A stretch of DNA of 64,000 nt. Source: Thermodesulfobacteriota bacterium. Lineage in GTDB: Bacteria > Desulfobacterota_D > UBA1144 > Nemesobacterales > Mycalebacteriaceae. The DNA is taken from contig OZ242184.1 of the NCBI GenBank assembly GCA_965205855.1, positions 512,001 to 576,000 of the forward strand. The letters are read 5' to 3'. Position numbers and translations under genes: made by a program. This document shows, piece by piece, positions 1 through 19,900 of this stretch. Position 1 is the first letter of the stretch; each line of letters begins with the position of its first letter. The notes beneath the pieces are model-generated. The model was not told the origin of the DNA and ran no database searches. It saw only the letters and a program-made list of their open reading frames with translations.

Positions 1-1490
1 GTGAGCGGCGGCCCAATCATCACTGACAGCCGGGGCCAGACCCCGACCCCGACCGAGGGTCAGAGACTGGAAGCAGCGACTGGCACCATTACCGACGCCA
101 GGGGCAGCTTCAGTTATCAATGGACTGCCAATAGAGTGGCTATCAGCGGCGCGGACAGGGCGCGCTACACCCCGACCCAGGCCGAGGTGGGCAAGATGAT
201 AAGGGTTATTGTGTCCTACACTGATACGCAGAGTGCTAACCGGCGCCTGACCAGCATTCCCGTCGGGCCGGTAGTCAATGTCAATGACGCGCCCACCGGA
301 GTACCGATCATTGCCGGCATCCCGACCCAAGGTCGGACCCTGACGGCGGATACCTCGGGCATTGAAGATGAAGATGGTCTGAATAGAGCGGTTTTCACCT
401 ATCAATGGAATACGCGTGTCAGGGGCACGGACACGGCAATTGATGGAGCCACCGCCAGTACCTACACCCTGAGCCAGTCCGAGGTGGGCGAGAGAATCAC
501 CCTGAGCGTCGGCTACACCGATGATGAAAACATGGACGAGGGTCCTCTGACCAGCGTTTCCGTCGGGCCGGTGTCCAATGCCAATGTTCGTCCCACCGGC
601 GAGGTGACCATTGATGGCACCCCGACCGAGGGTGAGACTCTGACGGCGAATACCGATGCCATTGAAGATGAGGATGGTCTGAGTAGAGCGGTTTTCACCT
701 ATCAATGGAATACGCGTGTCGGTGGCACGGACACGGCAATTGATGGAGCCACCGCCAGTACCTACACCCTGAGCCAGTCCGAAGTGGGCGAGAGAATCAC
801 CCTGAGCGTCGGCTACACCGATGATGAAAACATGGACGAGGGGCCTCTGACCAGCGTTTCCGTCGGGCCGGTGTCCAATGTTAATGACGCGCCCACCACC
901 AGCGGTCTGGCGGTTACGACAGACGAGGATATCGCCTATACCTTTGGGTTGGCCGACTTTTCCTTTACCGATGTCGACACTGGCGATAGCCTGGAGCAAG
1001 TGCGCATCGATACCCTGCCCGACGCTGGCAGCGGCAACCTGACCCTGAACAACACAGCGGTGACCGCGATGCAAGAGATTGCGGTTGGGGATATTACGAA
1101 TCTGGTCTATACCCCGGCGGCCAATGTCAACGGCGCTGCGACCTTCACCTTCAGCGTCTCTGACGGCACTGCCTTCAGTGCGTTCGCCACGGCAACCGTG
1201 ACCGTTACCGCGGTCAATGACCGGCCCACTGGCAGTGTAACCATCACCGGCACGGCGACCGAGGGCACGACCCTGACGGCGAACACCGATGGCATCAGCG
1301 ATGCCGATGGCCCTGATACCCTGACATTTAGCTATCAATGGCTATCGGGTTTCAGTCCGATAGCCGGTGCGAACGGAAGCACCTACATCCTGACCCCGGC
1401 CGATGTGGGCCAGTTTATCAGCGTGGCCGTCCGCTATACCGATGCTAATAACATGACCCATAGTGTGAGTAGTGCTCCCTTCGGGCCGGT
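1..1490 (+). repeat. ~1.5-kb block present three times (1, 7726, 60070)
   Basis: Offsets 7725 and 60069, confirmed by identical antisense ORFs at 216/7941/60285 and 513/8238/60582. The match to the 60070 copy extends to ~1935/62004. Confidence 0.95.
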
Positions 1491-4400
1491 GATCGTGGCG
1501 GGCACGGTGACGGTTTCCATTGCGCCCCCCGGCGCCGCAGTCGATGAGGGCGATCCCGCGACCTTCACCGTGACCCTGTCGGGTTCTCCCACGGATGAAG
1601 TGGTGGTGAACTATGCCACCTCGCCCGACACGGCGGTGGCGGCTGATTTCACCGATACCAGTGGCACGCTGACCTTCGCCGCGAACGCGAGCGGGGCCGC
1701 CCTGAGCCAGGATATCAGCGTACCGACGACGGACGATAGCGAGACCGAGGGCGATGAGACCTTCACCCTGACCCTGAGCGCGAACACTGCCAGCCCACTA
1801 CCGGCAGGTGTCACTCTGGACACGACCACGGCCCAGGCGACCATCGCAGCCAACGATGCACCGGTCAACAGCCCGCCCACCACCAGCGATCTGACGGTCA
1901 CCACAAACGAGGATACCGACTATACCTTTGCGGCGTCCGACTTCCCCTTTACCGATACCGACATGGACGATAGTCTGGAAGAGGTGCGCATCGATAGCCT
2001 GCCCGCCAGCACCAGCGGCAGCCTGGCGCTGAACGGCACAGCAGTGGCTGTGGACCAAGTGATTGCCGTTGCCGATATCCCGACTCTGGTCTATACCCCG
2101 GTGACCAATGTCAACGGCGATGCGACCTTCACCTTCAGCGTCTCCGACGGCACTGCCTTTAGTGCCACGCCCGCCACGGCAACCGTCAGCGTTACCGCAG
2201 TTAATGACGCGCCCACCATCACTGGCACCCCCGCCACAATGGTGATGCAAGGGGTGGCCTATAGCTTTATGCCGGACGGCGCAGATGTCGATACTGGCGA
2301 CACGCTGGTATATGCCATCACCAATATGCCAAGCTGGGCCAATTTCGATGCCGCGACCGGGGCCTTGACCGGCACGCCACAGAGCACCGATGTCGGTACC
2401 ACCACGGGCATTATCATCAGCGTCACCGATAACAATATCGCCGCGCCAGTAGAACTGCCCGCCTTCGACATCGAAGTCACCGCCACCCCCAACAGCCCGC
2501 CCACCACCAGCGACCTGATGGTCATGACAGACGAGGATACCGACTATACCTTTGCGGCGTCCGACTTCCCCTTTACCGATACCGACATGGACGATAGTCT
2601 GGAAGAGGTGCGCATCGATAGCCTGCCCGACAGCGGTAGCCTGACCCTAGGCGGCACAGAGGTTAACGAGGGGCAAGCGATTGCCGTTGCCGATATCCCG
2701 ACTCTGGTCTATACCCCGGTGACCAATGTCAACGGCGATGCGACCTTCACCTTCAGCGTCTCCGACGGCACTGCCTTTAGTGCCACGCCCGCCACGGCAA
2801 CCGTCACCGTGACCGCGGTCAATGACGCGTCCACTGGCAGTGTAACCATCACCGGCACGCCCCAGGTGGGCGAGACCCTGACGGCGGAGACCGGTGGCAT
2901 TAGCGATGCCGATGGCCTTACGAACGTGACTTTCGCGTATCAATGGCTGGAGGATGGCGGGAACCTTACCGGGGAGGCCTCGCCGACTCTCGCCTTGACG
3001 AGTGCGCATTTGGGTACGGATATTGAGGTACGGGTCAGCTTTACAGACAATGCCGGCAACAATGAAACACTAACCAGCAGCTCGGTCAACATTGGAGCGG
3101 CGGGCACGGTCAACAGCCCGGCGACGGGAGAACTGAGGATTTTCGGCACGCCCCGGGTGGGTGAGACCCTGAGGGCGTTCCCCCTGAGGATTGCGGATAC
3201 CGATGGTCTTGGCGACTTCAGCTATCAATGGCTGGCGAATGGCGTGGACCTTACCGGGGAGAACTCGCGAACTCTCGACTTGACCTCGGCGCATCAGGGC
3301 GCGGCGATTGCGGTACGGGTCAGCTTTACCGACGATGCCGGCAACGATGAAAGCCTGACCAGCGACTCGGTCACCATTGAGGCGGCACCCCCCACCGCTG
3401 TAATTGCACCGATTGATCCGGCGCTGTTGCTTACTGAGAATGGCGTGGAGGGCGTGGATGGTGGCATTGCCATCACCCTGGATGGCAGTGGCAGTGCCAC
3501 CAACCCCCCGGGCGGCACCCTGACCTACGCCTGGACTGAGCTCACACGAACGGGCATCGCCCTGACCGGCGCGGCCACGGCTATGCTCAGTTTCACCACG
3601 CCCGCCCGTGCGGAGTTAGCCGAGAGGCTGGTCTTCCGACTGACTGTGACCGACACCGCCAGCAATTCGACGGGCACCAGAGTCATTGGGGTAACGGTTC
3701 TGCCTGCTATGGTTGAGCCTCTTGTCGCTGTGGCTGGGCCAGATCAGACCGTGGCCACAGGCGCTATGGTGACGCTGGATGGTAGCGCCAGTACCGGTCC
3801 AGGAACCCTGTCCTATAACTGGGCGCAGAGTATCATTCCCGGCGCCGCACCTATCCAATTGGACAATTTTGGGTCTGCCATGCCGGTTTTTACTGCGCCG
3901 AACGTGACCACTACCAGGAATTTGGAGTTCAGATTGCAAGTGATGGCATCCGGCCTCAGCAGCAATTTCGACGAAGTCACCATTACCGTCGTGGGCGTGC
4001 CGAACATCTCGGCCAGCGTCAACAGCCTGATCGCCCCCATAGGCGTTGCCATCGAGCCGATCACCATCACCTCGACAGACGGTGGCACGGTGGCCAGTTA
4101 CAGCATCGCTCCGGCCATTGGCAATGGTCTGTCCTTTGATGAGAGCACCGGCACTATCTCCGGCACGCCAGATGCCGCCGCCGCTGAGGTCGTCTACACC
4201 ATCACTGCGGAAAATGTCAGCGGCACGGACACCGTCGAGGTTGCCATCACCGCCCCCGATGGCAATCTGCCTCCGGTGGCCAATGCCGGCACCGACCGTA
4301 CGGTTAGACCCGCTCTGAACTCTGTGGTCGAACTGGACGGCAGCGCCAGTTTTGACCCCGAGGGCGGGGCCCTGATCTACGCCTGGACCCAGAACGGCAC

Positions 4401-7400
4401 TCCCGACGTCGGCCTGACCGAAGAGAACACCGCAACCCCGAGGTTCACCCTGACCCAGGCCCTGCTTGATCAGTTGGCGGGAGAACCCACACTGAACTTC
4501 TCTTTGACAGTCACCGACGCCGCGAATGAGGCTTCTGTATCTGACAGCGTAGATATTCGCTTCGATATGACGCCCCCGGTTATCAGCCTGAACGGCGATT
4601 CTTCGGTATCCATCGTGGAGGGCGGCACCTATACGGACGCCGGTGCGACGGCTATGGACGCTGTTGACGGGAATATTACCGCTCGGATCACAACGACCGT
4701 TGCCTACAACGACGACACCATCACTATGCCCAGCGCGGACGGCAACGATCCCAACAGCGTTCCTGATGTAGATACCAACACGCCCGGTATCTACACCATC
4801 ATCTACAGGGTGGCGGATGCGGCGGGCAACACTGCCACGCCGCTTATCCGCGCAGTCAGGGTTCTGGACGGAAGTGCTCCGGTTATCACCCTGTTAGGCG
4901 AGGCCGAGATAACCATAGCGGCGGATACTGCCTATACGGATGCCCGTGCGACGGCCACGGACGCTGTTGACGGGGATGTTAGCGGCGAGATAACAGCGGC
5001 CATAGTCTACGATAACAACACAGCCGACACCGGCGACGACGAGACGGTCACTGCGGTAGATACCGCCAGGGTCGGCGTCTACACCATCACCTACAACGTG
5101 GAAGATGCGGCGGGCAACGCTGCCACGGCGGTCAGCCGCAGGGTTACTGTCGAGGACAGAACCGCCCCGGTCATTGACCGGAACGGCCCTTTTAGGGTAT
5201 CCATCGGACAGGGCGAGACCTATACGGACGCGGGTGCGACGGCCACGGACGCTGTTGACGGGGATATTACCACTCGGATCACAACGACCATTGTCTACAA
5301 TAACAACAGCTCCGGCACTGGCGACGACATAACGGTCACTGCGGTCGATACCGGCAGGCTCGGCGTCTACAACATCACCTACAATGTGACAGATACGGCG
5401 GGCAATGCTGCCGCGCCAAGGCGCAGGAGGGTTACTGTCACCCCGGACAGAACTGCTCCGGTTATTAGCTTGGTCGGCGCTTCTATGGTATCCATCGAGC
5501 AGGGCGGCACCTATACGGAAGCCGGTGCGACGGCCACGGACGCTGTTGACGGGGATGTTAGCGGAGATATTACGGTGAGCATTGTCTACAATAACAACAC
5601 CAGCGACGACGAGACGGACGACGAGACGGTTAATGCGGTCAATACCAGCAGGGTTGGCGTCTACACCATCACCTACAGGGTGACAGATGATGCGGGCAAT
5701 GATGCCACGGCGGTCGAGCGCACAGTCGCGGTCGAGGACGTAACGCCCCCGGTTATCAACCGGCTCGGCGCTTTTAGGGTATCCATCGAGCAGGGCGCCA
5801 CCTATGCGGACGCCGGGACGGCGGCCACGGACAATGTTGACGGTGATATTGGCGACCGAGTCAGTTTGAGCTTTGTCTACAATAACAACACCCCCGACCC
5901 CGCCGACAACATAGCGGTCGCTGCGGTCGATACCAGCAGGGTCGGCGTCTACACCATCACCTATAACGTGACAGATGTAGCGGGCAACGCTGCCGTGCCA
6001 AGGAGCAGGGAGGTCACTGTCGAGGAAGGAACTGCCCCGGTTATCACCCTGGTCGGCGATTCTGCGGTATCCATTGACCAGTTCGCCACCTATACGGACG
6101 CGGGGGCGACAGCCATGGACGCTACTGACGGGAATATTACCAACCGGATAACAGCGACCATCGTCTACAACAACAACACCGCTGGCACCGGCGACGACGA
6201 GACGGTTAATGCAGTCGATACCCTCAGGGTCGGCGTCTACACCATCACCTACAGGGTGGCAGATGCGGCGGGCAACGTTGCCACGCCGGTCAGCCGCACA
6301 GTCGAGGTCGAGGACGTAACGGCCCCGACTATCAGCCTGAACGGCGATTTTTCGGTATCCATCGCAGCGGGCGCGAACTATATTGATGAAGGGGCGACAG
6401 CATCGGACCATACTGACGGGGATATTACCAGCGCGATCATGGCGACCGTTGTCTACAATAACAACACCGACGACGAGACGGACGACGAGACGGTTACTGC
6501 AGTCGATACCGGCAGGGTCGGCATCTACACCATCACTTACCGCGTGGAAGATGCGGCGGGCAACGCTGCCACGCCGGTCAGCCGCACAGTCGAGGTCGAG
6601 GACAGAACTGCCCCGGTTATCAGCCGGAACGGCCCTTATAGGGTATCCATCGAACAGGGCGAGACCTATACGGACGCCGGTGCGACGGCCACGGACAACA
6701 TTGACGGAAATATTACCGATCAGATCACAACGACCATCGTCTACAATAACAACACCGCCAACACCGGCGACGACGAGACGGTTACTGCAGTCGATACCAG
6801 CAGGGTTGGCGTCTATACCATCACCTACAACCTGACAGATGCGGCGGGCAATGATGCCGCGCGGGTCAGGCGCAGGCAGGTTACTGTCACCCCGGACAGA
6901 ACTGCCCCGGTTATCAGCCTGTTAGGCGATGCCGAGATAACCATAGCGGCGGATACTACATATACTGATGCCGGTGCGACAGCCACGGACGTTGTTGACG
7001 GGGATGTTAGCGGCCTGATCACAGCGACCATCGTCTACAATAACAACACCGCCAACATCGGCGACGACGAGACGGTCACTGCAGTCGATACCGGCAGGGT
7101 CGGCACCTACGCCATCACCTACAACGTGTCAGATGCGGCGGGCAACGATGCCACGCCGGTCAGCCGCAGGGTCACTGTCGAGGATCAAACGGCCCCGGTT
7201 ATCACACGGAACGGCTCTTTTGCGGTATCCATCGTAGCGGGAGCGAACTATATTGAAAGCGCGACAGCCACGGACAATATTGACGGGGATATTACCGCTC
7301 GAATCACAACGACCATCGTCTACAACAACAACACCGCCAACACTGGCGACGACGAGACGGTCAATGCGGTCAATACCGGCAGGGTCGGCGTCTACAACAT

Positions 7401-10400
7401 CACCTACAACGTGACAGATGTGGCGGGCAACGCTGCCACGCCGGTCGAGCGCAGGGTTACTGTCGCGGATCAAACTGACCCGGTCATTAGCCTGAACGGC
7501 CTTGCTACGGTATCCATCGAACAGGGCGCTGTCTATGCTGATGCCGGGGCGAGGGCCACGGACAATATTGACGGGGATATTACCGCCCGGATCACAGCGA
7601 CCATTACCGACAGCAGTGGCAACGCGATTGCTGCGGTGGATACCGGCACGCCCGGCGTCTACACCATCACCTACAGGGTGGCAGATGTGGCGGGCAACGA
7701 AGCCGAGGTTTCCAGAATTGTCACCGTGAGCGGCGTCCCAATCATCACTGACAGCCAGGGCCAGACCCCGACCCCGACCGAGGGTCAGAGACTGGCGGTA
7801 GCGACCGACACCATTATCGACGCCCAGGGTAGCTTCAGTTACCAATGGACTGCCGATGGAGTGGCGATCAGCGGCGCGAACAGGGCGCGCTACACCCCGA
7901 CCCAGGCCGAGGTGGGCAAGATGATAAGGGTTATTGTGTCCTACACTGATACGCAGAGTGCTAACCGGCGTCTGACCAGCATTCCCGTCGGGCCGGTAGT
8001 CAATGTCAATGACGCGCCCACCGGAGTACCGATCATTGCCGGCATCCCGACCCAAGGTCGGACCCTGACGGCGGATACCTCGGGCATTGAAGATGAAGAT
8101 GGTCTGAATAGAGCGGTTTTCACCTATCAATGGAATACGCGTGTCGGTGGCACGGACACGGCAATTGATGGAGCCACCGCCAGTACCTACACCCTGAGCC
8201 AGTCCGAGGTGGGCGAGAGAATCACCCTGAGCGTCGGCTACACCGATGATGAAAACATGGACGAGGGGCCTCTGACCAGCGTTTCCGTCGGGCCGGTGTC
8301 CAATGCCAATGTTCGTCCCACCGGCGAGGTGACCATTGATGGCACCCCGACCGAGGGTGAGACTCTGACGGCGAATACCGATGCCATTGAAGATGAGGAT
8401 GGTCTGAGTAGAGCGGTTTTCACCTATCAATGGAATACGCGTGTCGGTGGCACGGACACGGCAATTGATGGAGCCACCGCCAGTACCTACACCCTGAGCC
8501 AGTCCGAAGTGGGCGAGAGAATCACCCTGAGCGTCGGCTACACCGATGATGAAAACATGGACGAGGGGCCTCTGACCAGCGTTTCCGTCGGGCCGGTGTC
8601 CAATGTTAATGACGCGCCCACCACCAGCGGTCTGGCGGTTACGACAGACGAGGATATCGCCTATACCTTTGGGTTGGCCGACTTTTCCTTTACCGATGTC
8701 GACACTGGCGATAGTCTGGAGCAAGTGCGCATCGATACCCTGCCCGACGCTGGTATCGGCAGCCTGTCCCTGAGCGGCACAGCGGTGACCGCGATGCAAG
8801 AGATTGCGGTTGGGGATATTACGAATCTGGTCTATACCCCGGTGGCCAATGTCAACGGCGCTGCGACCTTCACCTTCAGCGTCTCCGACGGCACTGCCTT
8901 CAGTGCGTCCGCCACGGCAACCGTGACCGTTACCGCGGTCAATGACCCGCCCACTGGCAGTGTAATCATCACCGGCACGGCGACCGAGGGCCAGACCCTG
9001 ACGGCGAACACCGATGGCATCAGCGATGCCGATGGCCCTGATACCCTGACATTCAGCTATCAATGGCTATCGGGTTTCAGTCCGATAGCCGGCGCGAACG
9101 GAAGCACCTACATCCTGACCCCGGCCGATGTGGGCCAGTTTATCAGCGTGTCCGTCCGCTATACCGATGCTAATAACATGACCCATAGTGTGAGTAGTGC
9201 TCCCTTCGGGCCGGTGGCTGATAATACCCCGCCCATCGCTGATGCCGGTGATGATCAGATTGTGGAAAAAGGCGCGACCGTCACCCTTGACGGCAGTGGC
9301 AGTAGCGATCCCGAGGGCGCGAACCTGACCTACGCCTGGGAACAGACCAGCGGAACCCCGACGGTGACTCTGAATGATACCAGCGCACAAAGCCCGACCT
9401 TTACCGTTCCAGACACAATAACAGCGGGTACTGCCGGCACCCTTAACTTCACCCTGACCGTCACCGAAGCCAGCGCGGGTCGGCTTTCCTCAACCGACCG
9501 CGTTCAGGTACGCATCAGACCGCTATTCCGGGACACAGTGAGCGACCAGACCTATATCCAGAATGTGGCCATAACCGACCTGCAATTGCCCGATGCCCTT
9601 GGTCAGGGCGAGACCTTCACCCTGGTCAGGGCGGGGTCGTCTACAGCCCTGCCGACCGGGCTGACATTTAATGCAGAGACACGCACACTGTCCGGCACCC
9701 CGGAAATAATCGGAACCTTTGACCTGACCTACACCGTAACGGACAGGTTCGGTGGAACCGACACACTGGAATTCAGCATCACTATCACCCCCAATACCCC
9801 GCCCATCGCCGATGCCGGGGATGATCAGATTGTGGAAAAAGGCACGACCGTCACCCTTGACGGCAGTGGCAGTAGCGATCCCGAGGGCGCGAGCCTGACC
9901 TACTCCTGGAGACAGACCGGGGGCCCGAATGCCACCCTGAATGATGTCAACGCACAAAGCCCGACCTTCACCCTTCCAGACAGAATAAGACCGGGTGCTA
10001 CTACTGGCGTCCTTATCTTCACCCTGACCGTCACCGAAGTCGGCGCGGGCGGACTTTCCTCAACCGACAGCGTCCGGGTACTCATCAGACCGCTGCTTCA
10101 GGACACAGTGAGCGACCAGACCTATATCCGGGATGTGGCTATAACCGATCTGCAATTGCCCGATGCCCTTGGTCAGGGCAACACCTTCACCCTGGTCAGG
10201 GATGGGTCGGCTCCAGCCCTGCCGACCGGGCTGACATTCAATGCAAGGACACGCACACTGTCCGGCACCCCGACAATAATCGGAACCTTTAACTTGATCT
10301 ACACCGTAAGGGACAGGTTCGGTGGAACCGACACACTGGAGTTTAGCATCACCATCATCCCCAATACCCCGCCCATCGCCGATGCCGGGGATGATCAGGT

Positions 10401-13400
10401 TGTGGAAAAAGGCACGATCGTCACCCTTGACGGCAGTGGCAGTAACGATCCCGATGGCTCGAGCTTGAACTACGCCTGGGAACAGACCAGCGGAACCCCG
10501 ACGGTGACTCTGAATAATACCAGCGCACAAAGCCCGACCTTTACCGTTTCGGACACAATAGCAACGGATGACGGCATACTTGTGTTCAGCCTGACCGTCA
10601 CCGAAGCCGACACGGGGCTCTCCTCTACAGCCGACAGCGTCGAAATACGCATCAGACCGCTACTCCGGGACACAGTGAGCAACCAGACCTATATCCAGAA
10701 TGTGGCCATAACCGACCTGCAATTGCCCGATGCCCTTGGTCAGGGCGAGACCTTCACCCTGGTCAGGGCGGGGTCGTCTACAGCCCTGCCGACCGGGCTG
10801 ACATTTAATGCAGAGACACGCACACTGTCCGGCACCCCGGAAATATCCGGAATCTTTGACCTGATCTACACCGTAACGGACAGGTTCGGTGGAACCGATA
10901 CACTGGAATTCAGCATTACCATCATCCCCAATACCCCGCCCATCGCCGATGCCGGGGATGATCAGATTGTGGAAAAAGGCACGACCGTCACCCTTGACGG
11001 CAGTGGCAGTAGCGATCCCGAGGGTGCGAGCCTGACCTACGCCTGGGAACAGACCAGCGGAACCCCGACGGTGACTCTGAATAATACCAGCGCACAAAGC
11101 CCGACCTTTACCGTTTCGGACACAATAGCAACGGATGACGGCATACTTGTGTTCAGCCTGACCGTCACCGAAGCCGACACGGGGCTCTCCTCTACAGCCG
11201 ACAGCGTCGAAATACGCATCAGACCGCTACTCCGGGACACAGTGAGCAACCAGACCTATATCCAGAATGTGGCCATAACCGACCTGCAATTGCCCGATGC
11301 CCTTGGTCAGGGCGAGACCTTCACCCTGGTCAGGGCGGGGTCGTCTACAGCCCTGCCGACCGGGCTGACATTTAATGCAGAGACACGCACACTGTCCGGC
11401 ACCCCGGAAATATCCGGAATCTTTGACCTGATCTACACCGTAACGGACAGGTTCGGTGGAACCGATACACTGGAATTCAGCATTACCATCACCCCCAATA
11501 CCCCGCCCACCTCAAGCGGTCTGGCGGTCACCACCGACGAGGATGCCGAATATACCTTTGCGGTTGTCGACTTCCCCTTTACCGATGCCGACGGCAATAG
11601 CCTGCAAGCGGTGCGCATCGATAGCCTGCCCGCCAGCGGTAGCCTGACCTTGGGCGGTACGGCGGTTAACGAGGGGCAAGAGATAGCCGTTGCGAATATT
11701 CCGACCTTGGTCTATACCCCGGTGGCCAATGCCAACGGCGATGTGACCTTCGACTTCAGCGTCTCCGATGGCGCTGACTTCAGTGAGTCCTCCACGGCGG
11801 TACTGACCATAGAAGCGTCAAATGACACTGCGACGGGATTGCCTACAATTACGGGCACGGCGAACGAGGGAGAGGTACTGACGGCGGATGTCTCTGGTAT
11901 TGAGGATATAGATGGTCTGCCCGAGCTGTCCATGTTCACCTATCAATGGAATACGCGGGTCGGGAGCACGGACACGCCGATTAACAACGCGACCACCGAA
12001 ACCTACACCCCGACCGAGGACGAGGTGGGCGAGTTTATCACGGTGACGGTCATCTTCACAGATGGCGGTGGCACGCGTGAAAGCCTTACAAGTGAGTCAA
12101 CGATGGAGGTGACAGATATTGTCAGGGTGTTAACGACGGACGAGGCGTTGCGTCTCAACGCGGAGCCACCGACCACGGACACGACGGGAAGTATTATCAT
12201 GTTGTCGACCAGCGAAGAAGTAATCCTTGATAACGCTAATGGTGAGGATTTCACAGTTACCTCAACCCTGAATGGCGAAACAATACCTCACGAGGTTACC
12301 GATATCAGGGCGGGCAGTATCGTACTGGAGGTGACCCCGGCAATCGGGTTCGGATCTCTCATCGTGGTTTCCTATAGTCCGGTTCAAGGTTCCATTACGG
12401 GTGTCAATACGGGCAATCCGGTGGTTCCGTTCAGTATAAGTGTGAACAACGCGGTACGGCCGTTGAATGAAGACCTGGATCGTGAAGGGAGGAAAACGTT
12501 GTTGACGCACCTTGCGGGTGTTCAGAGCGATCTGGTGATAAGTACGGTACAGAACCACCTGAGGGCGCTGGACGGAGGCAACCGTGTGAGCGTTCCACGA
12601 CATGCGGGCGTAGAGACAGAGGGAGAAGGCAAATACGTTGAATACGAGAACGTCCGTGAGATGCTGTCTCATCTGGAGTTTGATCTTTCCCTGAACAGTC
12701 TGATGGGGTCGAATGAGGAGTGGCGCAAGACCGGTATTTCGTCCGCCGGGTTAGAGAGTTCGACTGATTTGTCATCGCCGCGGACACTTACCCTGTGGGG
12801 AGGAGGAGGCGAGACGCGTCTGGACAACAATTACAATACATCCGGTGACGACAATCGCTATGACGGTCGTGTGTGGTCTTACAACACAGGTTTGGATTAC
12901 CGTCCCTCGGAGTCTTTGACCTTGGGTGCGGCAGTGGGTTATTTGGACAGTGAACTGACAACCACCTACAACGAAGGCACCTATGAGGAGAAGATGGTAT
13001 CGGTGTCACCGTACCTGCTGTATGAGAGTCCGTGGGGTCTGGATATATCCCTGTTCGGGGGCTACGGAATAGGAGATGTTGACCTGACGGGGACGTTTGG
13101 GCAGGCGAGCACGCCGTTTGTGGCATTTACCGACAGTAATCTGTTATTTGGCGCGGTGCGTGTGTCGGGTGCGATGAAGTTTTTGGATAACAGTTTGGAA
13201 GTGGTACCGAATGTGAGTCTGCTCGGCAGTCGCAAGAGGCTGGAGGGATATACGGACAGCAGCAACCGTGAGATTGGCGAGACCACGGCGTCAGTGCTTC
13301 GCCTGACTCCGGGTTTTGAGGTGAGTTACCGTGTGAAGTTTTCAGGAGTAACGTTGAGGCCGTTTGCGAGCGGAGGTTTGATATTTGATTTATTGGATAC

Positions 13401-13857
13401 GGTGAATGATGACGATATGACGTACAGTGTTGGCGGTGGAATGCGTTTTGAAACCGAGGTGGGTTTGAGCGGTTCTGTGGAGGGTCAGCGTGAGCTGGGT
13501 CGTGAAGCGGTAGAGCAACGGCGCTTTGTGGGCGCGTTGTCTTACGGTATTGCTGTGGGCAGGAATGGGAGAGCGGGGACTGTGACGCCGTCTGTAGGTA
13601 TTAATCACGCATCCGGGGATGATGTGTCCGCAGAGGGATTGTCACAGGCATACGTGCTGGAATACACCACGAGAGGTGGAGGCCACAGTATTAGTTTTGA
13701 GCATGACAGGTCGGAAGAGGAGGGAGCGCGTTCCGGTCTGGGTTATCGTTACGGAGCAGAGATTATGCCGGGATTGAACTTGGAGGCAACAGTGTCGTCC
13801 CCGAATGTTGAAAAACGTGAGGTTAAGGGATTTGTTGGCATGAAACTCCGGTTTTAA
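1..13857 (+). CDS. Giant Ig-repeat adhesin/autotransporter, gene 1 (5'-truncated by window edge)
   Basis: Open frame of 4618 codons from base 1. The GTG at 1 is an internal Val: the same DNA is mid-gene at 7726 and 60070. Contains cadherin-like, Calx-beta, He_PIG, PKD-like and 11 DUF5011-like modules, then an autotransporter-like barrel ending in Phe. Confidence 0.92.
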   Translation: MSGGPIITDSRGQTPTPTEGQRLEAATGTITDARGSFSYQWTANRVAISGADRARYTPTQAEVGKMIRVIVSYTDTQSANRRLTSIPVGPVVNVNDAPTGVPIIAGIPTQGRTLTADTSGIEDEDGLNRAVFTYQWNTRVRGTDTAIDGATASTYTLSQSEVGERITLSVGYTDDENMDEGPLTSVSVGPVSNANVRPTGEVTIDGTPTEGETLTANTDAIEDEDGLSRAVFTYQWNTRVGGTDTAIDGATASTYTLSQSEVGERITLSVGYTDDENMDEGPLTSVSVGPVSNVNDAPTTSGLAVTTDEDIAYTFGLADFSFTDVDTGDSLEQVRIDTLPDAGSGNLTLNNTAVTAMQEIAVGDITNLVYTPAANVNGAATFTFSVSDGTAFSAFATATVTVTAVNDRPTGSVTITGTATEGTTLTANTDGISDADGPDTLTFSYQWLSGFSPIAGANGSTYILTPADVGQFISVAVRYTDANNMTHSVSSAPFGPVIVAGTVTVSIAPPGAAVDEGDPATFTVTLSGSPTDEVVVNYATSPDTAVAADFTDTSGTLTFAANASGAALSQDISVPTTDDSETEGDETFTLTLSANTASPLPAGVTLDTTTAQATIAANDAPVNSPPTTSDLTVTTNEDTDYTFAASDFPFTDTDMDDSLEEVRIDSLPASTSGSLALNGTAVAVDQVIAVADIPTLVYTPVTNVNGDATFTFSVSDGTAFSATPATATVSVTAVNDAPTITGTPATMVMQGVAYSFMPDGADVDTGDTLVYAITNMPSWANFDAATGALTGTPQSTDVGTTTGIIISVTDNNIAAPVELPAFDIEVTATPNSPPTTSDLMVMTDEDTDYTFAASDFPFTDTDMDDSLEEVRIDSLPDSGSLTLGGTEVNEGQAIAVADIPTLVYTPVTNVNGDATFTFSVSDGTAFSATPATATVTVTAVNDASTGSVTITGTPQVGETLTAETGGISDADGLTNVTFAYQWLEDGGNLTGEASPTLALTSAHLGTDIEVRVSFTDNAGNNETLTSSSVNIGAAGTVNSPATGELRIFGTPRVGETLRAFPLRIADTDGLGDFSYQWLANGVDLTGENSRTLDLTSAHQGAAIAVRVSFTDDAGNDESLTSDSVTIEAAPPTAVIAPIDPALLLTENGVEGVDGGIAITLDGSGSATNPPGGTLTYAWTELTRTGIALTGAATAMLSFTTPARAELAERLVFRLTVTDTASNSTGTRVIGVTVLPAMVEPLVAVAGPDQTVATGAMVTLDGSASTGPGTLSYNWAQSIIPGAAPIQLDNFGSAMPVFTAPNVTTTRNLEFRLQVMASGLSSNFDEVTITVVGVPNISASVNSLIAPIGVAIEPITITSTDGGTVASYSIAPAIGNGLSFDESTGTISGTPDAAAAEVVYTITAENVSGTDTVEVAITAPDGNLPPVANAGTDRTVRPALNSVVELDGSASFDPEGGALIYAWTQNGTPDVGLTEENTATPRFTLTQALLDQLAGEPTLNFSLTVTDAANEASVSDSVDIRFDMTPPVISLNGDSSVSIVEGGTYTDAGATAMDAVDGNITARITTTVAYNDDTITMPSADGNDPNSVPDVDTNTPGIYTIIYRVADAAGNTATPLIRAVRVLDGSAPVITLLGEAEITIAADTAYTDARATATDAVDGDVSGEITAAIVYDNNTADTGDDETVTAVDTARVGVYTITYNVEDAAGNAATAVSRRVTVEDRTAPVIDRNGPFRVSIGQGETYTDAGATATDAVDGDITTRITTTIVYNNNSSGTGDDITVTAVDTGRLGVYNITYNVTDTAGNAAAPRRRRVTVTPDRTAPVISLVGASMVSIEQGGTYTEAGATATDAVDGDVSGDITVSIVYNNNTSDDETDDETVNAVNTSRVGVYTITYRVTDDAGNDATAVERTVAVEDVTPPVINRLGAFRVSIEQGATYADAGTAATDNVDGDIGDRVSLSFVYNNNTPDPADNIAVAAVDTSRVGVYTITYNVTDVAGNAAVPRSREVTVEEGTAPVITLVGDSAVSIDQFATYTDAGATAMDATDGNITNRITATIVYNNNTAGTGDDETVNAVDTLRVGVYTITYRVADAAGNVATPVSRTVEVEDVTAPTISLNGDFSVSIAAGANYIDEGATASDHTDGDITSAIMATVVYNNNTDDETDDETVTAVDTGRVGIYTITYRVEDAAGNAATPVSRTVEVEDRTAPVISRNGPYRVSIEQGETYTDAGATATDNIDGNITDQITTTIVYNNNTANTGDDETVTAVDTSRVGVYTITYNLTDAAGNDAARVRRRQVTVTPDRTAPVISLLGDAEITIAADTTYTDAGATATDVVDGDVSGLITATIVYNNNTANIGDDETVTAVDTGRVGTYAITYNVSDAAGNDATPVSRRVTVEDQTAPVITRNGSFAVSIVAGANYIESATATDNIDGDITARITTTIVYNNNTANTGDDETVNAVNTGRVGVYNITYNVTDVAGNAATPVERRVTVADQTDPVISLNGLATVSIEQGAVYADAGARATDNIDGDITARITATITDSSGNAIAAVDTGTPGVYTITYRVADVAGNEAEVSRIVTVSGVPIITDSQGQTPTPTEGQRLAVATDTIIDAQGSFSYQWTADGVAISGANRARYTPTQAEVGKMIRVIVSYTDTQSANRRLTSIPVGPVVNVNDAPTGVPIIAGIPTQGRTLTADTSGIEDEDGLNRAVFTYQWNTRVGGTDTAIDGATASTYTLSQSEVGERITLSVGYTDDENMDEGPLTSVSVGPVSNANVRPTGEVTIDGTPTEGETLTANTDAIEDEDGLSRAVFTYQWNTRVGGTDTAIDGATASTYTLSQSEVGERITLSVGYTDDENMDEGPLTSVSVGPVSNVNDAPTTSGLAVTTDEDIAYTFGLADFSFTDVDTGDSLEQVRIDTLPDAGIGSLSLSGTAVTAMQEIAVGDITNLVYTPVANVNGAATFTFSVSDGTAFSASATATVTVTAVNDPPTGSVIITGTATEGQTLTANTDGISDADGPDTLTFSYQWLSGFSPIAGANGSTYILTPADVGQFISVSVRYTDANNMTHSVSSAPFGPVADNTPPIADAGDDQIVEKGATVTLDGSGSSDPEGANLTYAWEQTSGTPTVTLNDTSAQSPTFTVPDTITAGTAGTLNFTLTVTEASAGRLSSTDRVQVRIRPLFRDTVSDQTYIQNVAITDLQLPDALGQGETFTLVRAGSSTALPTGLTFNAETRTLSGTPEIIGTFDLTYTVTDRFGGTDTLEFSITITPNTPPIADAGDDQIVEKGTTVTLDGSGSSDPEGASLTYSWRQTGGPNATLNDVNAQSPTFTLPDRIRPGATTGVLIFTLTVTEVGAGGLSSTDSVRVLIRPLLQDTVSDQTYIRDVAITDLQLPDALGQGNTFTLVRDGSAPALPTGLTFNARTRTLSGTPTIIGTFNLIYTVRDRFGGTDTLEFSITIIPNTPPIADAGDDQVVEKGTIVTLDGSGSNDPDGSSLNYAWEQTSGTPTVTLNNTSAQSPTFTVSDTIATDDGILVFSLTVTEADTGLSSTADSVEIRIRPLLRDTVSNQTYIQNVAITDLQLPDALGQGETFTLVRAGSSTALPTGLTFNAETRTLSGTPEISGIFDLIYTVTDRFGGTDTLEFSITIIPNTPPIADAGDDQIVEKGTTVTLDGSGSSDPEGASLTYAWEQTSGTPTVTLNNTSAQSPTFTVSDTIATDDGILVFSLTVTEADTGLSSTADSVEIRIRPLLRDTVSNQTYIQNVAITDLQLPDALGQGETFTLVRAGSSTALPTGLTFNAETRTLSGTPEISGIFDLIYTVTDRFGGTDTLEFSITITPNTPPTSSGLAVTTDEDAEYTFAVVDFPFTDADGNSLQAVRIDSLPASGSLTLGGTAVNEGQEIAVANIPTLVYTPVANANGDVTFDFSVSDGADFSESSTAVLTIEASNDTATGLPTITGTANEGEVLTADVSGIEDIDGLPELSMFTYQWNTRVGSTDTPINNATTETYTPTEDEVGEFITVTVIFTDGGGTRESLTSESTMEVTDIVRVLTTDEALRLNAEPPTTDTTGSIIMLSTSEEVILDNANGEDFTVTSTLNGETIPHEVTDIRAGSIVLEVTPAIGFGSLIVVSYSPVQGSITGVNTGNPVVPFSISVNNAVRPLNEDLDREGRKTLLTHLAGVQSDLVISTVQNHLRALDGGNRVSVPRHAGVETEGEGKYVEYENVREMLSHLEFDLSLNSLMGSNEEWRKTGISSAGLESSTDLSSPRTLTLWGGGGETRLDNNYNTSGDDNRYDGRVWSYNTGLDYRPSESLTLGAAVGYLDSELTTTYNEGTYEEKMVSVSPYLLYESPWGLDISLFGGYGIGDVDLTGTFGQASTPFVAFTDSNLLFGAVRVSGAMKFLDNSLEVVPNVSLLGSRKRLEGYTDSSNREIGETTASVLRLTPGFEVSYRVKFSGVTLRPFASGGLIFDLLDTVNDDDMTYSVGGGMRFETEVGLSGSVEGQRELGREAVEQRRFVGALSYGIAVGRNGRAGTVTPSVGINHASGDDVSAEGLSQAYVLEYTTRGGGHSISFEHDRSEEEGARSGLGYRYGAEIMPGLNLEATVSSPNVEKREVKGFVGMKLRF
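4564..7725 (+). repeat. 11 tandem DUF5011-like Ig modules (gene 1)
   Basis: Repeated D.T.PVI.L.G...SI..G.TY.DAGATA.D..DG.I...VDT...G.YTITY.V.D.AGN motif, most with a YNNNT..TGDDETV loop insertion. Confidence 0.8.
9223..11496 (+). repeat. 4 tandem PKD-like + He_PIG di-domain units (567-570 bp)
   Basis: NTPPIADAGDDQ starts at 9223, 9793, 10363 and 10930; the last two units are almost identical. Confidence 0.9.
12170..12460 (+). other. SwmB-like Ig domain preceding the linker helix and barrel (also in genes 2 and 3)
   Basis: Pattern GSIIMLSTSEE...DFTVT...VLEV..AI..G..IVVSY.P....GNPV.PFS..V.N resembles SwmB-type repeats; recognised by eye only. Confidence 0.5.
12781..13854 (+). other. C-terminal autotransporter-like beta-barrel with ~100-aa extension (gene 1)
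   Basis: LWGGGG...YDGRVWSYNTGLDYR...LGAAVGY...SVSPY motifs typical of type Va translocators, amphipathic strands, terminal Phe. Confidence 0.85.
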
Positions 13858-13876
13858 AAACAAATTAAATTTATAG

Positions 13877-13905
13877 TTGCAAAATGTTCGGAAGAAGAAT
13901 AAAAT
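13877..13905 (+). promoter_or_regulatory. Putative sigma70 promoter of gene 2
   Basis: TTGCAA (13877-13882), 17 bp, TAAAAT (13900-13905), 18 bp before the ATG. Confidence 0.65.
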
Positions 13906-13923
13906 AACTTCTCAATAATAAAT

Positions 13924-16900
13924 ATGCCTGTCAAAAAACGACATATTAGTGACTTCATGTTAACTTGCCTGAGGGTGGTGGCTGGTTTCTGCGCGCTGGT
14001 GCTCTTCTCGCTGGGGCTATCGGCAACCGCGGCCCATGCAGTTCATGAAGTTCAAGGCTTCAGCCTCACCGGCACCCCCATCCAGGGTGGGACGCTGACG
14101 GTTACAGGCACTAATTTAACCTCCGGGCATCCCGGCGAAATCCCCGTCTATTCATGGAGGTATTTTACTGGTGCTCCGCTCTCCGAAACCTCCAACACCT
14201 ACCAGCTCACCCAGGCCGATGTGGGCAGATTTCTCATAGTGAGCGTCTCAACTGGGGATCAAACGAGAAGCCTCGGCACATTGGATGAGATAGTCAACAG
14301 CAATCTCCGGCCCACCGGCACGGTGCCCATCACCGGCAATCTGAGCGAGAATGAGACCCTTGGGGTGAATCTCTCCGGCCTGCGCGATGACGATGGCCTG
14401 CCCAACCGCTCAACATTTAGCTATCAGTGGTCTCGTTCCGATGCGGGTACTAATCTTGTTTCCATTAGCGGCGCCACCGGGCGCACCTACACCCTGACCC
14501 AGTCCGATGTGGGCAACCACATCACCCTGACCATCTCATATACCGACCGCGAGAACCGTCAGGAGACATACAGAACGACTACCTCAGGTCAGATAGCCAA
14601 TGTCAATGTCCCGCCCACCGGATTACCGGCCATTAGCGGCACCCGGACCGAGGGTCGGACCCTGACGGCCATTACCGATGCCATTGAAGATAGGGATGGT
14701 CTGGAAAATGCGGTTTTCACCTATCAATGGAATACGCGGATAGGAAGCACGGACACGCCGATTTCCGGCGCGACCCAGCGCACCTACATACCGACCCAGG
14801 CCGATGTCGGCCGGATGGTCACCGTGACCGTCCGCTACACCGATGATGAAAACAGTGCCGAGGGCCCCCTGACCAGCGCACCCACGACGGTGTTCGCTCA
14901 ACAACAAACAACGCGTGCTCTGAGCGCGACAGTAACGCCTCTTTCCATCACCCCGGGTGATGGTCCTGTGGAGATGTTTCCCGACTTGACCGTGATAGGA
15001 ACAATACCTAATTTAGTTCAAATAAGAGTCTTGAACCGGGGTGACTTGGTAAATGAAGATGCCGTGACCACCCCGTTCGTGCGCTTGCACGATCCGGTTG
15101 TGCCCGGGTTTAACTTTCAAGCCTCCCCCACCAACATCACCAGTGATAGTAGGGTATTCACCAGTTTTGCGCAAGAGCCACCGAGCCAAAACGCAGAGGC
15201 GTGGCAAACTTTGCTCCGGAGCGTCGCCTTTCAGGCACCGGCTGATACTGGCGGACGCAAGATTCAACTCAGAGTTGAGGCGTCTTACGATAATGGATCT
15301 TCCTACTTAAACATGCTGTCCCGAACCCTCAATATCGTGGGCCCCGCGCCCAACAACCCGCCCACATCAAGCGGGCTGGCGGTCAGCACGCCTGAGGACA
15401 CCCCCTATACCTTTGAGGCGGACGACTTTCCCTTTACCGATGCCGACACTGGCGATAGACTGCAACGAGTGAGCATCAATGACCTGCCTGCCAGAGGCAC
15501 CCTGACCCTCGGCGGCGGAGCAGTGCTCGCAGGGCAAGTGATTAACGTTACCGCTATTCCGACTCTGGTCTATACCCCGCCGGAAAATGCCAACGGTGAT
15601 GACATCTTCACCTACAGCGTCTACGACGGCACCACCTTCAGCACCGCCACTACCATGGCAACCATCACTATCAACCCGGTCAATGACCCGCCCACCGGCG
15701 CGGTGACCATCGATGGCATGCCGGCCCAGAATCAGACCCTGACTGCGGTAACCGATGCCATTGTCGAACCCGATGGTCTGGAAAATGCGGTTTTCACCTA
15801 CCAATGGAATACGCGGGTCGGGAGCACGGACACGCCGATTAGCAACGCGACCTCCGAAACCTACACCCTGACCCAGGGCGATGTGGGCGAGATGATCACC
15901 GTGACCGTGCGCTATACCGATGCCGGGGGCGAGGATGAAGGGCCGCTGACCAGCGCGCCCACAGAGGCGGTGGCCAATGTCAATGACCCGCCTGTCGGCA
16001 CGGCAATTACGTTGCCCGTGCCGAGCGTGACGGGGGGCGCAGAGACGGTTGATTTGAATAGCATTTTTACCGACCCCGATGGCGATGCCCTGATATATAC
16101 CGCAAGCTCTGGTGATGAAAGCGTGCTCAGGGTGTCGGTGACGGACAGTACGTTGACCCTCATCCCGGTTACCAGAGGCACCGCAACCCTCACGCTCAGG
16201 GCCAATGATAGAAACGGGGGCAACGGCGAACTGAGGATTGTGGCAACGGTGGGCAATAGTCCGCCCATCATCCCGGAAATTGTGCTGCCGGTGTTTACCT
16301 CCTTCTCGGGAGAACAGGGACCCTTTGAGCTGAGCGACATTCCCAGGGGGGTGGACCCTGACGGCGATATAACGACCTACACCGTGGTCTCTGATGATCT
16401 TAACATCGCCGAGGGGATGATAGATGCGTCACACCCGCTATACAGGCTGTTTGTTACCCCGTTCGACATCGGTAACGCCAACCTCACCATCACGGCCAAT
16501 GATGGCAATGGCGGCACGGATACCCGGGTGGTTGCGGTGCAGGTGCTGGGGTTCAACCGGTCGCCTGTGCGCACGATGGTCGTCCCGATGGTGCCTGAGC
16601 TGAGTCTGCCGGCGGGGCCACAAGAGGTTGAACTGAGTGGCACTTATACAGACCCTGATGGCGATGATGATGCTTTGACTTATCAAGCGGTGTTTTTTGA
16701 CACGGAAGATCCGAACCCGGATTTCGAAGAAGAAGATGTGGTCACCTGGGCAGTCACGGGCAGTACGCTGACCCTGACCCCGGTGGGTCCTGGTACCCTC
16801 AGGCTCGGTATCCGAGCGCTTGATAGCCGCCTTCCGCCCGGCAGAGCCGGCGGGCTGATACTTCCCGTCACGGTGATTAACAGCCCGGTCAGTGGCAATG

Positions 16901-19900
16901 TGATTATTGATGGCGTCCCTGAACGGGACCAGACTCTGACGGCGGACACCTCCGGCATTAGCGATGCCGATGGCCCCGATCCCCTGCCATTCACCTATCA
17001 ATGGAATAGGAACAACGGAACCACGAGCGAGCCGATCCCCGGCGCAAACGAGGAAACCTACACTCTGACCGATGATGACGTGGGGAACAGCATCAGCGTG
17101 ACCGTCGACTACACCGATAGAGGGGGTACCGACGAGGGGCCCCTGACCAGTACGCTCACGGCGCAGGTCATTGGCACGGTGGCGGTTTCCATTGCGCCCC
17201 CTGACGCTCCCGTCGATGAGGGCGAAGACGCCACCTTCACGGTGACTTTATCGCATTCTACCGCGAATGACATCGTGCTGAACTATGCCACCTCGGTGGC
17301 GCCTGAGGACACGGCGGAGCAGAGCGATTTCATGGCGACGAGCAGCACCTTGACCTTTTCGCCGGGCGCGGCTCTGAGCCAGACCTTCACGGTATCGGTG
17401 GAAGACGATGAACTGGTGGAAGGCGACGAGACCTTCACGGCGACCCTGAGCGCGAACTCTGCCAGCCCGCTACCAGTGGGCGTTAGTCTGGCGACGGCGA
17501 CGGCCCAGGCGACCATCGCGGCCAACGGCACGGCGACGGTGTCGGTCATTAGCGGCGGCAATACTGTGCCCGAAGACCAGGACATCACCTTTGCCGTGCA
17601 ACTGTCGGGGGCTCCGGGATCGGATGTGGTGGTGAACTACACCGCTTCGGTCGAGGCCGGCGACACGGCGATGGCGAGCGATTTCACAGAAACCACTGGC
17701 ACGCTGACCTTCCCGGCGGGCACGAGCGAGTTGAGCCAGACTTTCACTGTGGGGGTGGTTAACGATAACCTGCCGGAAGACAACGAGACCTTCACGGTGA
17801 CCCTGAGTGAGAACCCTGACAACCCGCTACCGGCAGGGTTCACCCTGGACATGGACATGCAAACGGCACGCGGGACAATCGCGGCGAGCGATGAGGCGAC
17901 GATATCCCTCGCCGGGCCCAGAGACCCGGTGATCGAGGGTGAGAATGCCGTGTTCACCGTGACCCTGTCGGCCTCGCCTGTGGGCGATGGCTTGACGGTG
18001 GGCTTTAGCACCTCCATTGAGTCAGACGACACCGCCCAGGCAAATGATTTCACCGAGACCAGCGGCGCGCAGACCTTCTTCATGGGCACGAACGCCCTGA
18101 CCCAGACCATCGTTGTGCCGGTGACCGACGATAACGAAGTCGAGAACAGCGAGACCTTCACGCTAACCCTGATGAATGACGGCGACGGGGGTTCTGTCTT
18201 CCCGCCAGGTTTCATCCTCAACCCGTCGGCCAGCAGCGCCAAGGCGGCCATCGTGGGCAGAAATAATGCGCCCACCACCGTCGGGCTGGGGGCTTTGATA
18301 GACGAGGATACCTCCCATACCTTTGTGGCGGACGACTTCAACTTTACCGATGCCGACATGAGCGATATGCTGGAACAAGTGCGCATCGATAGCCTGCCCG
18401 CCACGGGCGACCTGACCCTGAACGGCACAGCGGTCAACGCGATGCAAGAGATTACCGTTACCGATATCGACAACGGCAGTCTGGTCTATACCCCGGCGGA
18501 CAATGTCAACGGTGCTTCGACCTTCGACTTTAGCCTCTCCGACGGCACTGACTTCAGTGAGTCCGCCGTGGCAACCATCCTCATTCGCGCGGTCAATGAT
18601 GAGCCCAGCGGCACGGTGACGATCAGCGGCACGGCCCGGGTGGGCGAGACCCTGATGGCGAACACCGGCGGCATCAGCGATGTCGATGGTCCCGATCCCC
18701 TGACATTCACCTACCAATGGAATACGCACTCCGGCGGCGTGGATACGGCCATCAGCGGCGCGAACTCTGCAACCTACACCCCGACCACGGGCGATGAGGG
18801 CGAGATGATCACCGTGACGGCCAGATTCACCGATGACGGTGGTATGCGTGAAAGCCTGACCAGCGCGCCCACGGCGGCGGTGGCGATGATGTCCCCGCCC
18901 CCGCCCTTGCCTGACCTGAGCGGCACCACAACGCCCCTTCCAGTCACGCCGGGGGGTGATGCGGTGGTGGTCTTTCCCGATTTGGTGGTGAGCGATGCAG
19001 ATGCAAACCCTGTAGTCATAAGAGTAAGAGTCGAGAACCCGGATGACTTGAATGCTGGCGATACCCTGGCCTTCAGCGGTACTCCGAATACGAGCGGGAT
19101 TCAGGTGCAGTTTTTTCCCGCCGCCGGAATTATAGGTACTTCTAATGATACATTGTTTGGCGGTTTTGCGTCCGGGACACCCCCAGGCGCAGATAGATGG
19201 CAGGGTTTGCTCAGGAACCTCACCTTTGCGGCACCCGCCGGTAGTGGCGGACGCGAGATTCGATTATTCGTTCAGGTGCGATACAGTCTTAGTGGTTCCG
19301 ACTCCTCCGACACCCTGACCCGAACCCTCAATATCGGCGCGCCGGCGGCCAACAGCCCGCCGACGGGGCTTCCGACCATCACCGGCACGCCCCGGGTGGG
19401 GGTGACCCTGACGGCAAACACCAGCGGCATCAGCGATGCCGATGGTCCCGATCCCCTGCCGTTCACCTATCAATGGAATACCCACGCCGGCGGCACGGAC
19501 ACGGCCATCAACAACGCGACCTCCGCAACCTACCTCCTGACCGCGGACGAAATGGGCGATCAAATCACCGTGTCTGTGCGTTATACCGATGCCGGGAACA
19601 CCAACGAAGGGCCGCTGACCAGCGTGCCCACGGCGGCGGTGGCGATGATGTCCCCGCTTGAACTGAGCGGGACGACAACGCCCCTTCCGGTCACGCCGGG
19701 GGGTGCTCCGGTGGCGATCTTTCCCGATTTGAGCATAGACACAGGGCGGCCCAATACCTTTAGACTAAGAGTCGAGAGTGCGGCTAATCTGAACTCTGGC
19801 GATGCGGTGACGCTCGCTGCTGCTGCGGAGAGGAGAAATTATGACATTTTATTTATACCCATCGCTAGTGTTGGTGCATCGCAAAACATAATAGTCGGCG

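Follow-up and report, generated by a model that had tools for sequence, protein, structure and literature searches.

A type Va-derived autotransporter anchor with a beta-barrel predicted to exceed 12 strands

How large can the barrel of a single-chain autotransporter become? This question is raised by giant autotransporter genes in a 64,000-nucleotide stretch of bacterial DNA (GenBank assembly GCA_965205855.1, contig OZ242184.1, positions 512001-576000), which is referred to as the window and gives all coordinates below unless the contig is named; it belongs to a genome of 1.40 Mb in a single contig with 59% G+C. In the first of these genes, 101 amino acids (aa) encoded by 13552-13854 (+) lie beyond the canonical autotransporter end, and an initial annotation had interpreted them as six additional strands of a possible 18-stranded barrel. 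The answer reached here is a graded one. A barrel of at least 16 strands is considered quite probable, and exactly 18 strands in this clade are given about an even chance. The overall reading of the final ~360 aa encoded by genes 1-3, i.e., a type Va-derived translocator and anchor with a barrel larger than the canonical 12 strands, is likewise held to be evenly poised.

The C-terminal domain used for all comparisons (Q, 485 aa) is encoded by 12400-13854, the base of residue n being 12400+3(n-1), and comprises the following parts, described by open-frame position, predicted fold and, where given, the predicted local distance difference test score (pLDDT) of AlphaFold2 (AF2):

12463-12570 (+): predicted linker alpha-helix (Q22-57), pLDDT 84-96 in model 1; helix 24-57 in model 2
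12649-12780 (+): conserved pre-barrel segment (Q84-127, HLEFDLSLNSL...), F94 nearly invariant; pLDDT 23-62, fold uncertain
12781-13557 (+): 12-strand core (Q128-386, strands 1-12), from the PF03797 match, AF2 and the homologue alignment
13558-13716 (+): predicted extension strands 13-15 (Q393-406, 413-424 and 429-439), from AF2, amphipathicity and hhalign
13732-13800 (+): clade-specific hairpin GLGYRYGAE / IMPG / LNLEATVS (Q445-467), from AF2 model 2 and the alignment
13822-13857 (+): terminal strand VKGFVGMKLRF and stop codon, an AF2 strand at 474/476-483 in both models

The first step is to locate the point at which a classical barrel would end. All segments on which the annotation relied are present (RTLTLWGGGG at 12781, TVTPSVGIN, QAYVLEYT, SISFEHD, GLGYRYGAE, LNLEATVS and VKGFVGMKLRF), and its view that a 12-strand core ends with RRFVGALSYGI (13551), at the usual stop of type Va, held: the terminal ...R-F-x-F of classical homologues (RFKF, RFNF) aligns opposite Q384-386 (...ALSYGI), and the homologue alignment sets the classical end at 13551-13557. 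PF03797 matches Q133-348 (12796-13443; profile positions 2-219 of 255; E 7.1e-22; 78.8 bits with a cut-off of 26), which leaves the extension uncovered as foreseen, but the match stops already at ~13443 instead of the predicted ~13551. Within the last 585 aa, PF03797 and PF13505 alone were found in Pfam at E<=1, and no match was returned by NCBIfam with the C-terminal domain at E<=1 or when the 485-aa domain was searched against PDB sequences at E<=10; thus, a known family covering the region from end to end, a result that was to speak against the proposal, did not emerge.

The extension is shared by many relatives. An exhaustive phmmer search with Q yielded 289 cluster representatives at E<=1e-3, ordered by similarity to Q, and tail classes were assigned by running a profile built from Q128-386, the 12-strand core, over the best 150 of these 289, so that class proportions are not representative of autotransporters at large. 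Among the 149 of 150 that matched, 63 are classical and end -2 to +12 aa past the core, 66 carry a tail of 58-82 aa with a mode of ~68 (the +~70 class) and 11 a tail of at least 90 aa (90-99 in Q's clade, 114-129 in five others); the core is incomplete in 8, and one is a truncated fragment. The extended relatives in this set nearly all end in F, W or Y. The extension is not a product of chance: its length falls into separate groups of about 68, 90-99 and 114-129 aa, 77 clusters conserve it, and it is strongly amphipathic. In an alignment of 80 sequences, the invariant G347 is followed by 36-38 residues in 15 classical-type sequences, by ~101-120 in most others and by 129-154 in Q's clade; 14 of those 15 are among the best 150 of 289 and classed as classical, with P0079 and P0081 lying outside the 80-sequence alignment.

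The two closest loci, detected in a single-protein scan, are situated in alphaproteobacterial metagenome-assembled genomes (MAGs; 61% and 58% identity). A survey of 120 genomes, all from the window's own order, revealed matches at E<=1e-10 in 28 of them. The 43 loci examined, which include this genome and the two MAGs, comprise 40 open frames with tails of 94-119 aa past the core profile, one classical locus (L013) and two partial matches. Without this genome and the two MAGs, and with overlaps merged by hand, 29 places in 17 genomes remain, and the tail measures 103-119 aa in every one of them; the loci, known from sequence, are those that best match a profile of Q type and hence a biased sample. 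Their tails have no Pfam coverage. For the protein of the window itself, the ESM Atlas yielded generic autotransporter clusters only and no structure. Tails of 103-129 aa with a sequence unlike that of Q's tail were observed in the representatives P0087, P0095, P0129, P0134 and P0148 and in loci L003-L043, ending in ...RLNW, ...NLRW or ...KLNF, and may represent further barrel sizes (perhaps 18-20 strands) or independent extensions.

Do the added residues resemble strands of a barrel wall? In 64 extended sequences, strands 13-18 alternate between hydrophobic and polar residues just as strongly as strands 7-12 do, with Kyte-Doolittle face differences of 2.0-4.3 for the added strands, strand 14 being lower at 1.25. 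The two clade-specific strands reach 2.2 and 4.3, and in Q itself their faces score 1.5 vs -2.2 and -2.1 vs 2.3. Moreover, an hhalign comparison of the extension profile with the whole core gave one match, to strands 9-12 (86.8%, E 4.2e-6, 58 columns), the next-best reaching 3%, and against the segment of strands 9-12 the match rose to 93.9% (E 1.5e-7, over 58 columns), the register being kept as far as the C-terminus of each; among the controls, five other segment pairs gave 0.3-23.9% and reversal of the extension no more than 8%. On this profile evidence, strands 13-15 and the terminal strand are homologous to strands 9-12. This result is taken as a sign that the last double hairpin was duplicated in tandem. 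The former barrel end, strand 12 with RRFVGALSYGI, has become an internal Y-G-[FIL] with a conserved Y382 and is, judged by its sequence, a remnant of the old terminal beta-signal. The assignment of a terminal-Phe beta-signal to the final segment likewise stood, the protein ending in ...GMKLRF with F485 invariant in an 18-sequence, clade-weighted alignment; a C-terminal aromatic residue is the characteristic mark of the final membrane strand in substrates of BAM (beta-barrel assembly machinery).

The fold predicted by AF2 depends on the alignment supplied. Model 1, obtained with the 80-sequence family-wide alignment (pLDDT 77.4; predicted template modelling score, pTM, 0.76), features a 36-residue helix (22-57) followed by 16 consecutive strands from residue 130 to 483, which are connected by short turns, with pLDDT 64-83 for strands 13-15 and 62-67 for the last strand. 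Residues 441-471, which include GLGYRYGAE and LNLEATVS, remain below 50. This stretch is found in just ~5-7 of the 80 aligned sequences, and therefore the 18-sequence clade-weighted alignment was built, in which the hairpin lines up across Q, L001, P0006, P0008 and P0033; it is kept in these four relatives and absent from the +~68-aa class. Model 2, based on this alignment (pLDDT 72.2, pTM 0.68), comprises 18 strands, the added ones at 445-456 and 459-467 having pLDDT 67-73 and the last strand 51-62, with turns of 2-6 residues on the presumed periplasmic side and an even strand parity. Confidence in the extension is moderate in both models (pLDDT 51-84). The enlarged barrel of the initial annotation is thus what AF2 predicts, with 16 strands family-wide and 18 clade-weighted, and the contrary outcome named there, in which 12 strands close the barrel and the tail folds as a soluble domain of its own, occurred in neither model. 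Of the six added strands, exactly the six proposed segments recur in model 2, but GLGYRYGAE and LNLEATVS find no confident place in model 1.

Comparison with solved structures by VIA-align, in which barrel closure was judged from the alignment ranges, extends this result to known barrels. Model 1 matches seven solved 12-strand autotransporters with Z 15.6-18.8 and a root-mean-square deviation (rmsd) of 4.2-4.7 over model residues ~18-384 only (Z 18.8 for EstA, 18.5 for NalP, 17.8 each for Hbp and EspP, 17.7 for AIDA-I), and the 16-strand barrels of FhaC (Z 16.5, 126..484) and CdiB (Z 16.2, 25..485, 311 residues aligned) from the first to the last strand. In model 2, the whole barrel is spanned by 19-strand VDAC1 (Z 16.1, rmsd 3.5, 64..483), Tom40 (Z 15.6, rmsd 4.0) and 18-strand OccD2 (Z 13.2, 125..485), and further by Mdm10, yeast porin and 18-strand OccAB4, AlgE and Wzi; Omp85 barrels end at ~450-453, and the rmsd to autotransporters rises up to 5.4-6.3, EstA (Z 18.8, rmsd 4.7) excepted. 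For these predicted models, the structural comparison is suggestive of an enlarged barrel and not decisive.

Nevertheless, several observations weigh against an enlarged barrel, or against a fixed strand number. The AF2 runs disagree (16 vs 18 strands), the result having varied with the composition of the alignment, the terminal strand reaches a pLDDT of just 51-67 across both models, and the other four models of the second run were lower (67.1-62.7). That strand 1 pairs with the last strand was deduced from alignment ranges, not from coordinates. Amphipathic beta profiles can align spuriously, a worry which the hhalign controls lessen but do not remove. EstA is top-ranked for both models, its range in model 2 being 13..485 with 263 residues aligned, and the Z scores for 12-, 16- and 19-strand barrels lie within ~3 units; therefore, fold matching is weakly discriminating. 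The Foldseek search that had been recommended as a check was uninformative against the PDB for both models and favoured neither side, as EstA was followed by 22-strand TonB-dependent receptors at template modelling (TM) scores of ~0.3-0.4. Finally, AIDA-I, suspected of being a long type in the accessible part of PMC3419190, groups with the 12-strand autotransporters in the structure matches.

These points bear on two competing explanations. The one that survives better, though rather unlikely, assumes a 16-strand barrel as in the +68-aa family, with strands 15 and 16 connected by residues ~440-472 as a long extracellular loop or a hairpin at the surface. Precisely this arrangement results from AF2 with the deep family alignment, where residues 441-471 stay below pLDDT 50, but model 2 puts the inserted segments in the sheet (pLDDT 67-73) and matches 18-19-strand barrels end to end; against this, in turn, stands the fact that the 18-strand outcome arose from a deliberately clade-weighted alignment. 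A loop would suit the inferred strand parity, which places the insertion on the extracellular side where long loops are usual, and 66 of the 149 matched representatives possess only ~68 extra residues. Still, the inserted segments alternate between faces (2.2 and 4.3) as strongly as wall strands, are linked by a turn of 2-4 residues and persist as a conserved hairpin in P0008 and P0033, whose identity to Q is 31-36%, all of which argues for wall strands.

Distinctly improbable is an ordinary 12-strand type Va barrel whose 101-aa tail forms a small periplasmic or pore-folded beta domain and was wrongly merged by AF2. Such a separate domain is seen in neither AF2 model, the invariant C-terminal aromatic residue now stands at the end of the extension, and the extension strands, which come in even-strand quanta of length, are amphipathic like wall strands and homologous, by profile, to strands 9-12. 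The rmsd to 12-strand autotransporters of 4.2-6.3 Å also exceeds the 2.3 Å given for a true pair in the available portion of 10.1101/2025.07.27.666995. On the other side, autotransporters are still the best structural matches and the confidence in the extension is moderate only; all solved PF03797 barrels returned by the structure searches are described as 12-stranded, as far as the accessible text of PMC9289746 covers them, and strand 12 retains its Y-G-[FIL], with internal beta-motifs being known in autotransporters according to the part of PMC3419190 at hand. An overlapping gene as the cause of the extension is ruled out, as no minus-strand open reading frame (ORF) of at least 150 aa lies over 12400-13857.

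For the preferred reading, an enlarged barrel, the following course of events is proposed. A classical 12-strand PF03797 barrel would have gained a tandem copy of strands 9-12 and thereby become a 16-strand barrel, the form proposed to be common among the nearest relatives; in Q's clade, a further hairpin (GLGYRYGAE / LNLEATVS) would have been inserted ahead of the last strand, resulting in 18 strands. By analogy with type Va, we infer barrel closure, lumen content and the steps of secretion: Sec would export the protein, the newly acquired C-terminal strand (...MKLRF) would act as beta-signal for BAM and close the barrel against strand 1, and the passenger would cross the membrane while the barrel assembles. 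The linker helix and probably the ~45-aa pre-barrel segment would remain in the wider lumen as a plug, and the barrel would finally anchor the fibre of immunoglobulin (Ig)-like repeats.

With regard to the plug, the linker helix overlays the pore helix of solved autotransporters and helix H1 of CdiB in VIA-align, the ranges opening at model residues 18-25 for EstA, NalP, Hbp, EspP, AIDA-I and CdiB. The gap between this helix and strand 1 comprises ~72 residues including the conserved pre-barrel motif, and Q84-127 is a candidate lumen plug. Many phmmer matches to Q begin at Q84, and a hidden Markov model of the motif was positive in 49 of 67 members of the +~70 class, 4 of 11 with tails of at least 90 aa and 1 of 63 classical sequences, a test which is partly circular in that the model was made from extended members and the classical matches are more distant.

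Does the enlargement serve the giant passengers? The initial annotation regarded it as suited to Ig-repeat passengers of >400 kDa, a suggestion which was not borne out, as the extension class does not follow protein size. An adaptation to giant passengers is rejected, the same extension being present on proteins of 369-1037 aa. The median protein length is 377 aa in the classical class, 593 aa in the +~70 class (176-1037, fragments included) and 704 aa in the class with at least 90 additional residues (462-5115). The closest relatives of the 18-strand type include proteins of 462, 682 and 704 aa, and P0035 (369 aa) and P0053 (392 aa) consist of little more than the extended barrel.

The genes and the further copies of the extension are arranged in the window as follows:

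1-13857 (+): gene 1, 3' part, from the ORF list; giant autotransporter ending in ...VKGFVGMKLRF and stop
13924-27006 (+): gene 2, giant
26701-27003 (+): gene 2 copy of the extension, protein identical to gene 1, 1 nucleotide (nt) different
27340-41817 (+): gene 3, giant
41512-41814 (+): gene 3 copy of the extension, protein identical to gene 1, 1 nt different
41913 onwards: gene 4, giant, start inside the window

In the whole genome, the open frame of gene 1 comprises 12381 aa by open-frame scan, and its passenger contains PKD, Big_9, He_PIG and cadherin-like Ig repeats (Pfam, residues encoded by 8800-12399). Genes 2, 3 and 4 possess an N-terminal Sec-type signal peptide, read by eye from a hydrophobic core with AHA or ASA after it; this reading covers genes 2-4, the N-terminus of gene 1 lying outside the window. 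The claim that the extension is identical in genes 2 and 3 is correct for the protein (all 101 aa) but not for the DNA, where each of the two copies differs from gene 1 at 1 of 303 nt and the two differ from each other at 2 nt. Altogether, the genome encodes five near-identical long beta-domains of 353 aa each from Pfam start to end, and two classical ones of 245 and 260 aa. The shared beta-domains are located at 12775-13854, 25924-27003 and 40735-41814 of the window and at 486832-488580 and 584003-585592 of the contig. Only 14-17 differences separate the three window copies over the last 1080 nt, and upstream of the beta-domain the copies are set apart by a 6-aa indel (LAPVVG) and divergent passengers; the near-identical anchor modules look like the product of concerted evolution or gene conversion.

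Further observations concern the surroundings of these genes. Gene 4 (41913-49169) ends one base ahead of the ATG of a 4943-aa frame (49171-63999) which runs off the window, and the barrel that matches it is encoded past the window's end, by an open frame of just 1719 aa; this region probably reflects either one giant gene broken in at least two places or a misassembly of repeats. Together, the four long autotransporter frames that are intact (12381, 10601, 4827 and 4367 aa) amount to ~96.5 kb, so that repeat adhesins take up ~6.9% of the 1.40-Mb genome. The spacer between genes 1 and 2 (13858-13923) is AT-rich, measures 66 nt and contains a sigma-70-like site at 13877-13905 with 9 of 12 positions matching; after the stop codon of gene 1 there is no hairpin of terminator type, the sole terminator-like match (13521-13535) being located within the coding region. 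Long antisense ORFs inside the passenger genes (32266-35814 (-), 1182 aa; 45381-49172 (-), 1263 aa; 7129-9063 (-), 644 aa) probably arise as a side effect of repetitive coding sequence rich in G+C.

With slightly less than even confidence, these findings are generalized to a subclass of monomeric autotransporters in which the PF03797 barrel has been enlarged C-terminally from 12 to 16 to 18 strands, possibly more, and has acquired a new plug segment, dominant in one order of small-genome Alphaproteobacteria and common elsewhere. In the argument over how passengers get through the membrane, the narrow pore holds a central place and has shaped the discussion for two decades; if the enlarged barrel is real, this narrowness would not be a fixed property of the type V family. 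Moreover, nature would then offer a series of 12-, 16- and 18-strand translocators for testing pore size against passenger secretion, the plug and the dependence on BAM, as well as a clear recent case of outer-membrane barrel growth by C-terminal duplication of a double hairpin that includes the beta-signal strand. The PF03797 and NCBIfam models cut or miss these domains, and therefore strand counts inferred from the family name would be wrong. A wider translocator might also be useful for surface display if bulkier cargo is tolerated.

The published framework against which this barrel has to be placed is uniform. In the accessible sections of PMC9289746, type Va has 12 strands and types Vb and Vd have 16 strands together with POTRA domains, the classical autotransporter pore measuring ~10 x 12.5 Å. 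All autotransporter barrels studied are 12-stranded according to the part of PMC3419190 at hand, and the available text of the bioRxiv preprints 10.1101/2025.07.27.666995 and 10.1101/2025.01.03.631275 presents only 12-strand autotransporters, that of 10.64898/2026.03.07.710327 nothing on autotransporter strand numbers. No published PF03797 barrel of more than 12 strands was found in a search without supplements or subscription journals.

The locus shares with classical type Va the C-terminal PF03797 domain, the alignment of strands 1-12 and the aromatic beta-signal, as well as the Sec signal peptides (genes 2-4) and a repeat adhesin as passenger, and its predicted linker helix aligns with the pore helix of that class. 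In classical autotransporters, the helix runs straight into the barrel, whereas ~72 residues separate Q's helix from strand 1. Unlike EstA (3kvn), NalP (1uyo), EspP, Hbp (3aeh), AIDA-I (4mee), BrkA (3qq2) and AaaA (9oqa), Q continues for 101 aa past the last classical strand (~68 family-wide), and 16-18 wall strands are predicted instead of 12.

Likeness to the 16-strand Omp85/TpsB barrels of type Vb and Vd secretion (FhaC 4ql0, CdiB 6wil) is given by the end-to-end match of model 1 and by the strand count, which equals that of the +68-aa family. Unlike these, Q shows neither POTRA nor PF01103 in Pfam at E<=1, and its homology is to PF03797. An Omp85 ancestry of the extra strands was rejected, as this signal is missing and the strands resemble Q's own strands 9-12; the sequence homology to PF03797 and the derivation from strands 9-12 therefore make the Omp85 likeness one of size, not of ancestry. 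PlpD is a further 16-strand system of the Omp85 type. In contrast to type Vc, a single chain provides the 16-18 predicted strands and there is no YadA anchor match in Pfam, and in contrast to type Ve the barrel is located at the C-terminal end of the ORF and not N-terminal to the passenger.

The transport unit of AIDA-I (4mee) is presumably a 12-strand barrel. Together with Ag43, AIDA-I belongs to the 'long-type' group 13, whose barrel domains are flagged as long, with extra strands being queried, in the accessible part of PMC3419190; the extra motif copies there lie inside or ahead of the domain, whereas those of Q follow the last strand and carry the beta-signal. A closer parallel in mode of growth is the double hairpin shift (Franklin et al., 2018, PMC6340704), as strands 13-16 align with strands 9-12. 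In the available portion of that work, growth is mainly N-terminal and no such repeat is linked to autotransporters, whereas Q would have grown C-terminally by duplicating its beta-signal strand. Taken together, the barrel has the working mode and the ancestry of a type Va autotransporter, yet by prediction it departs from the 12 strands that characterize this type.

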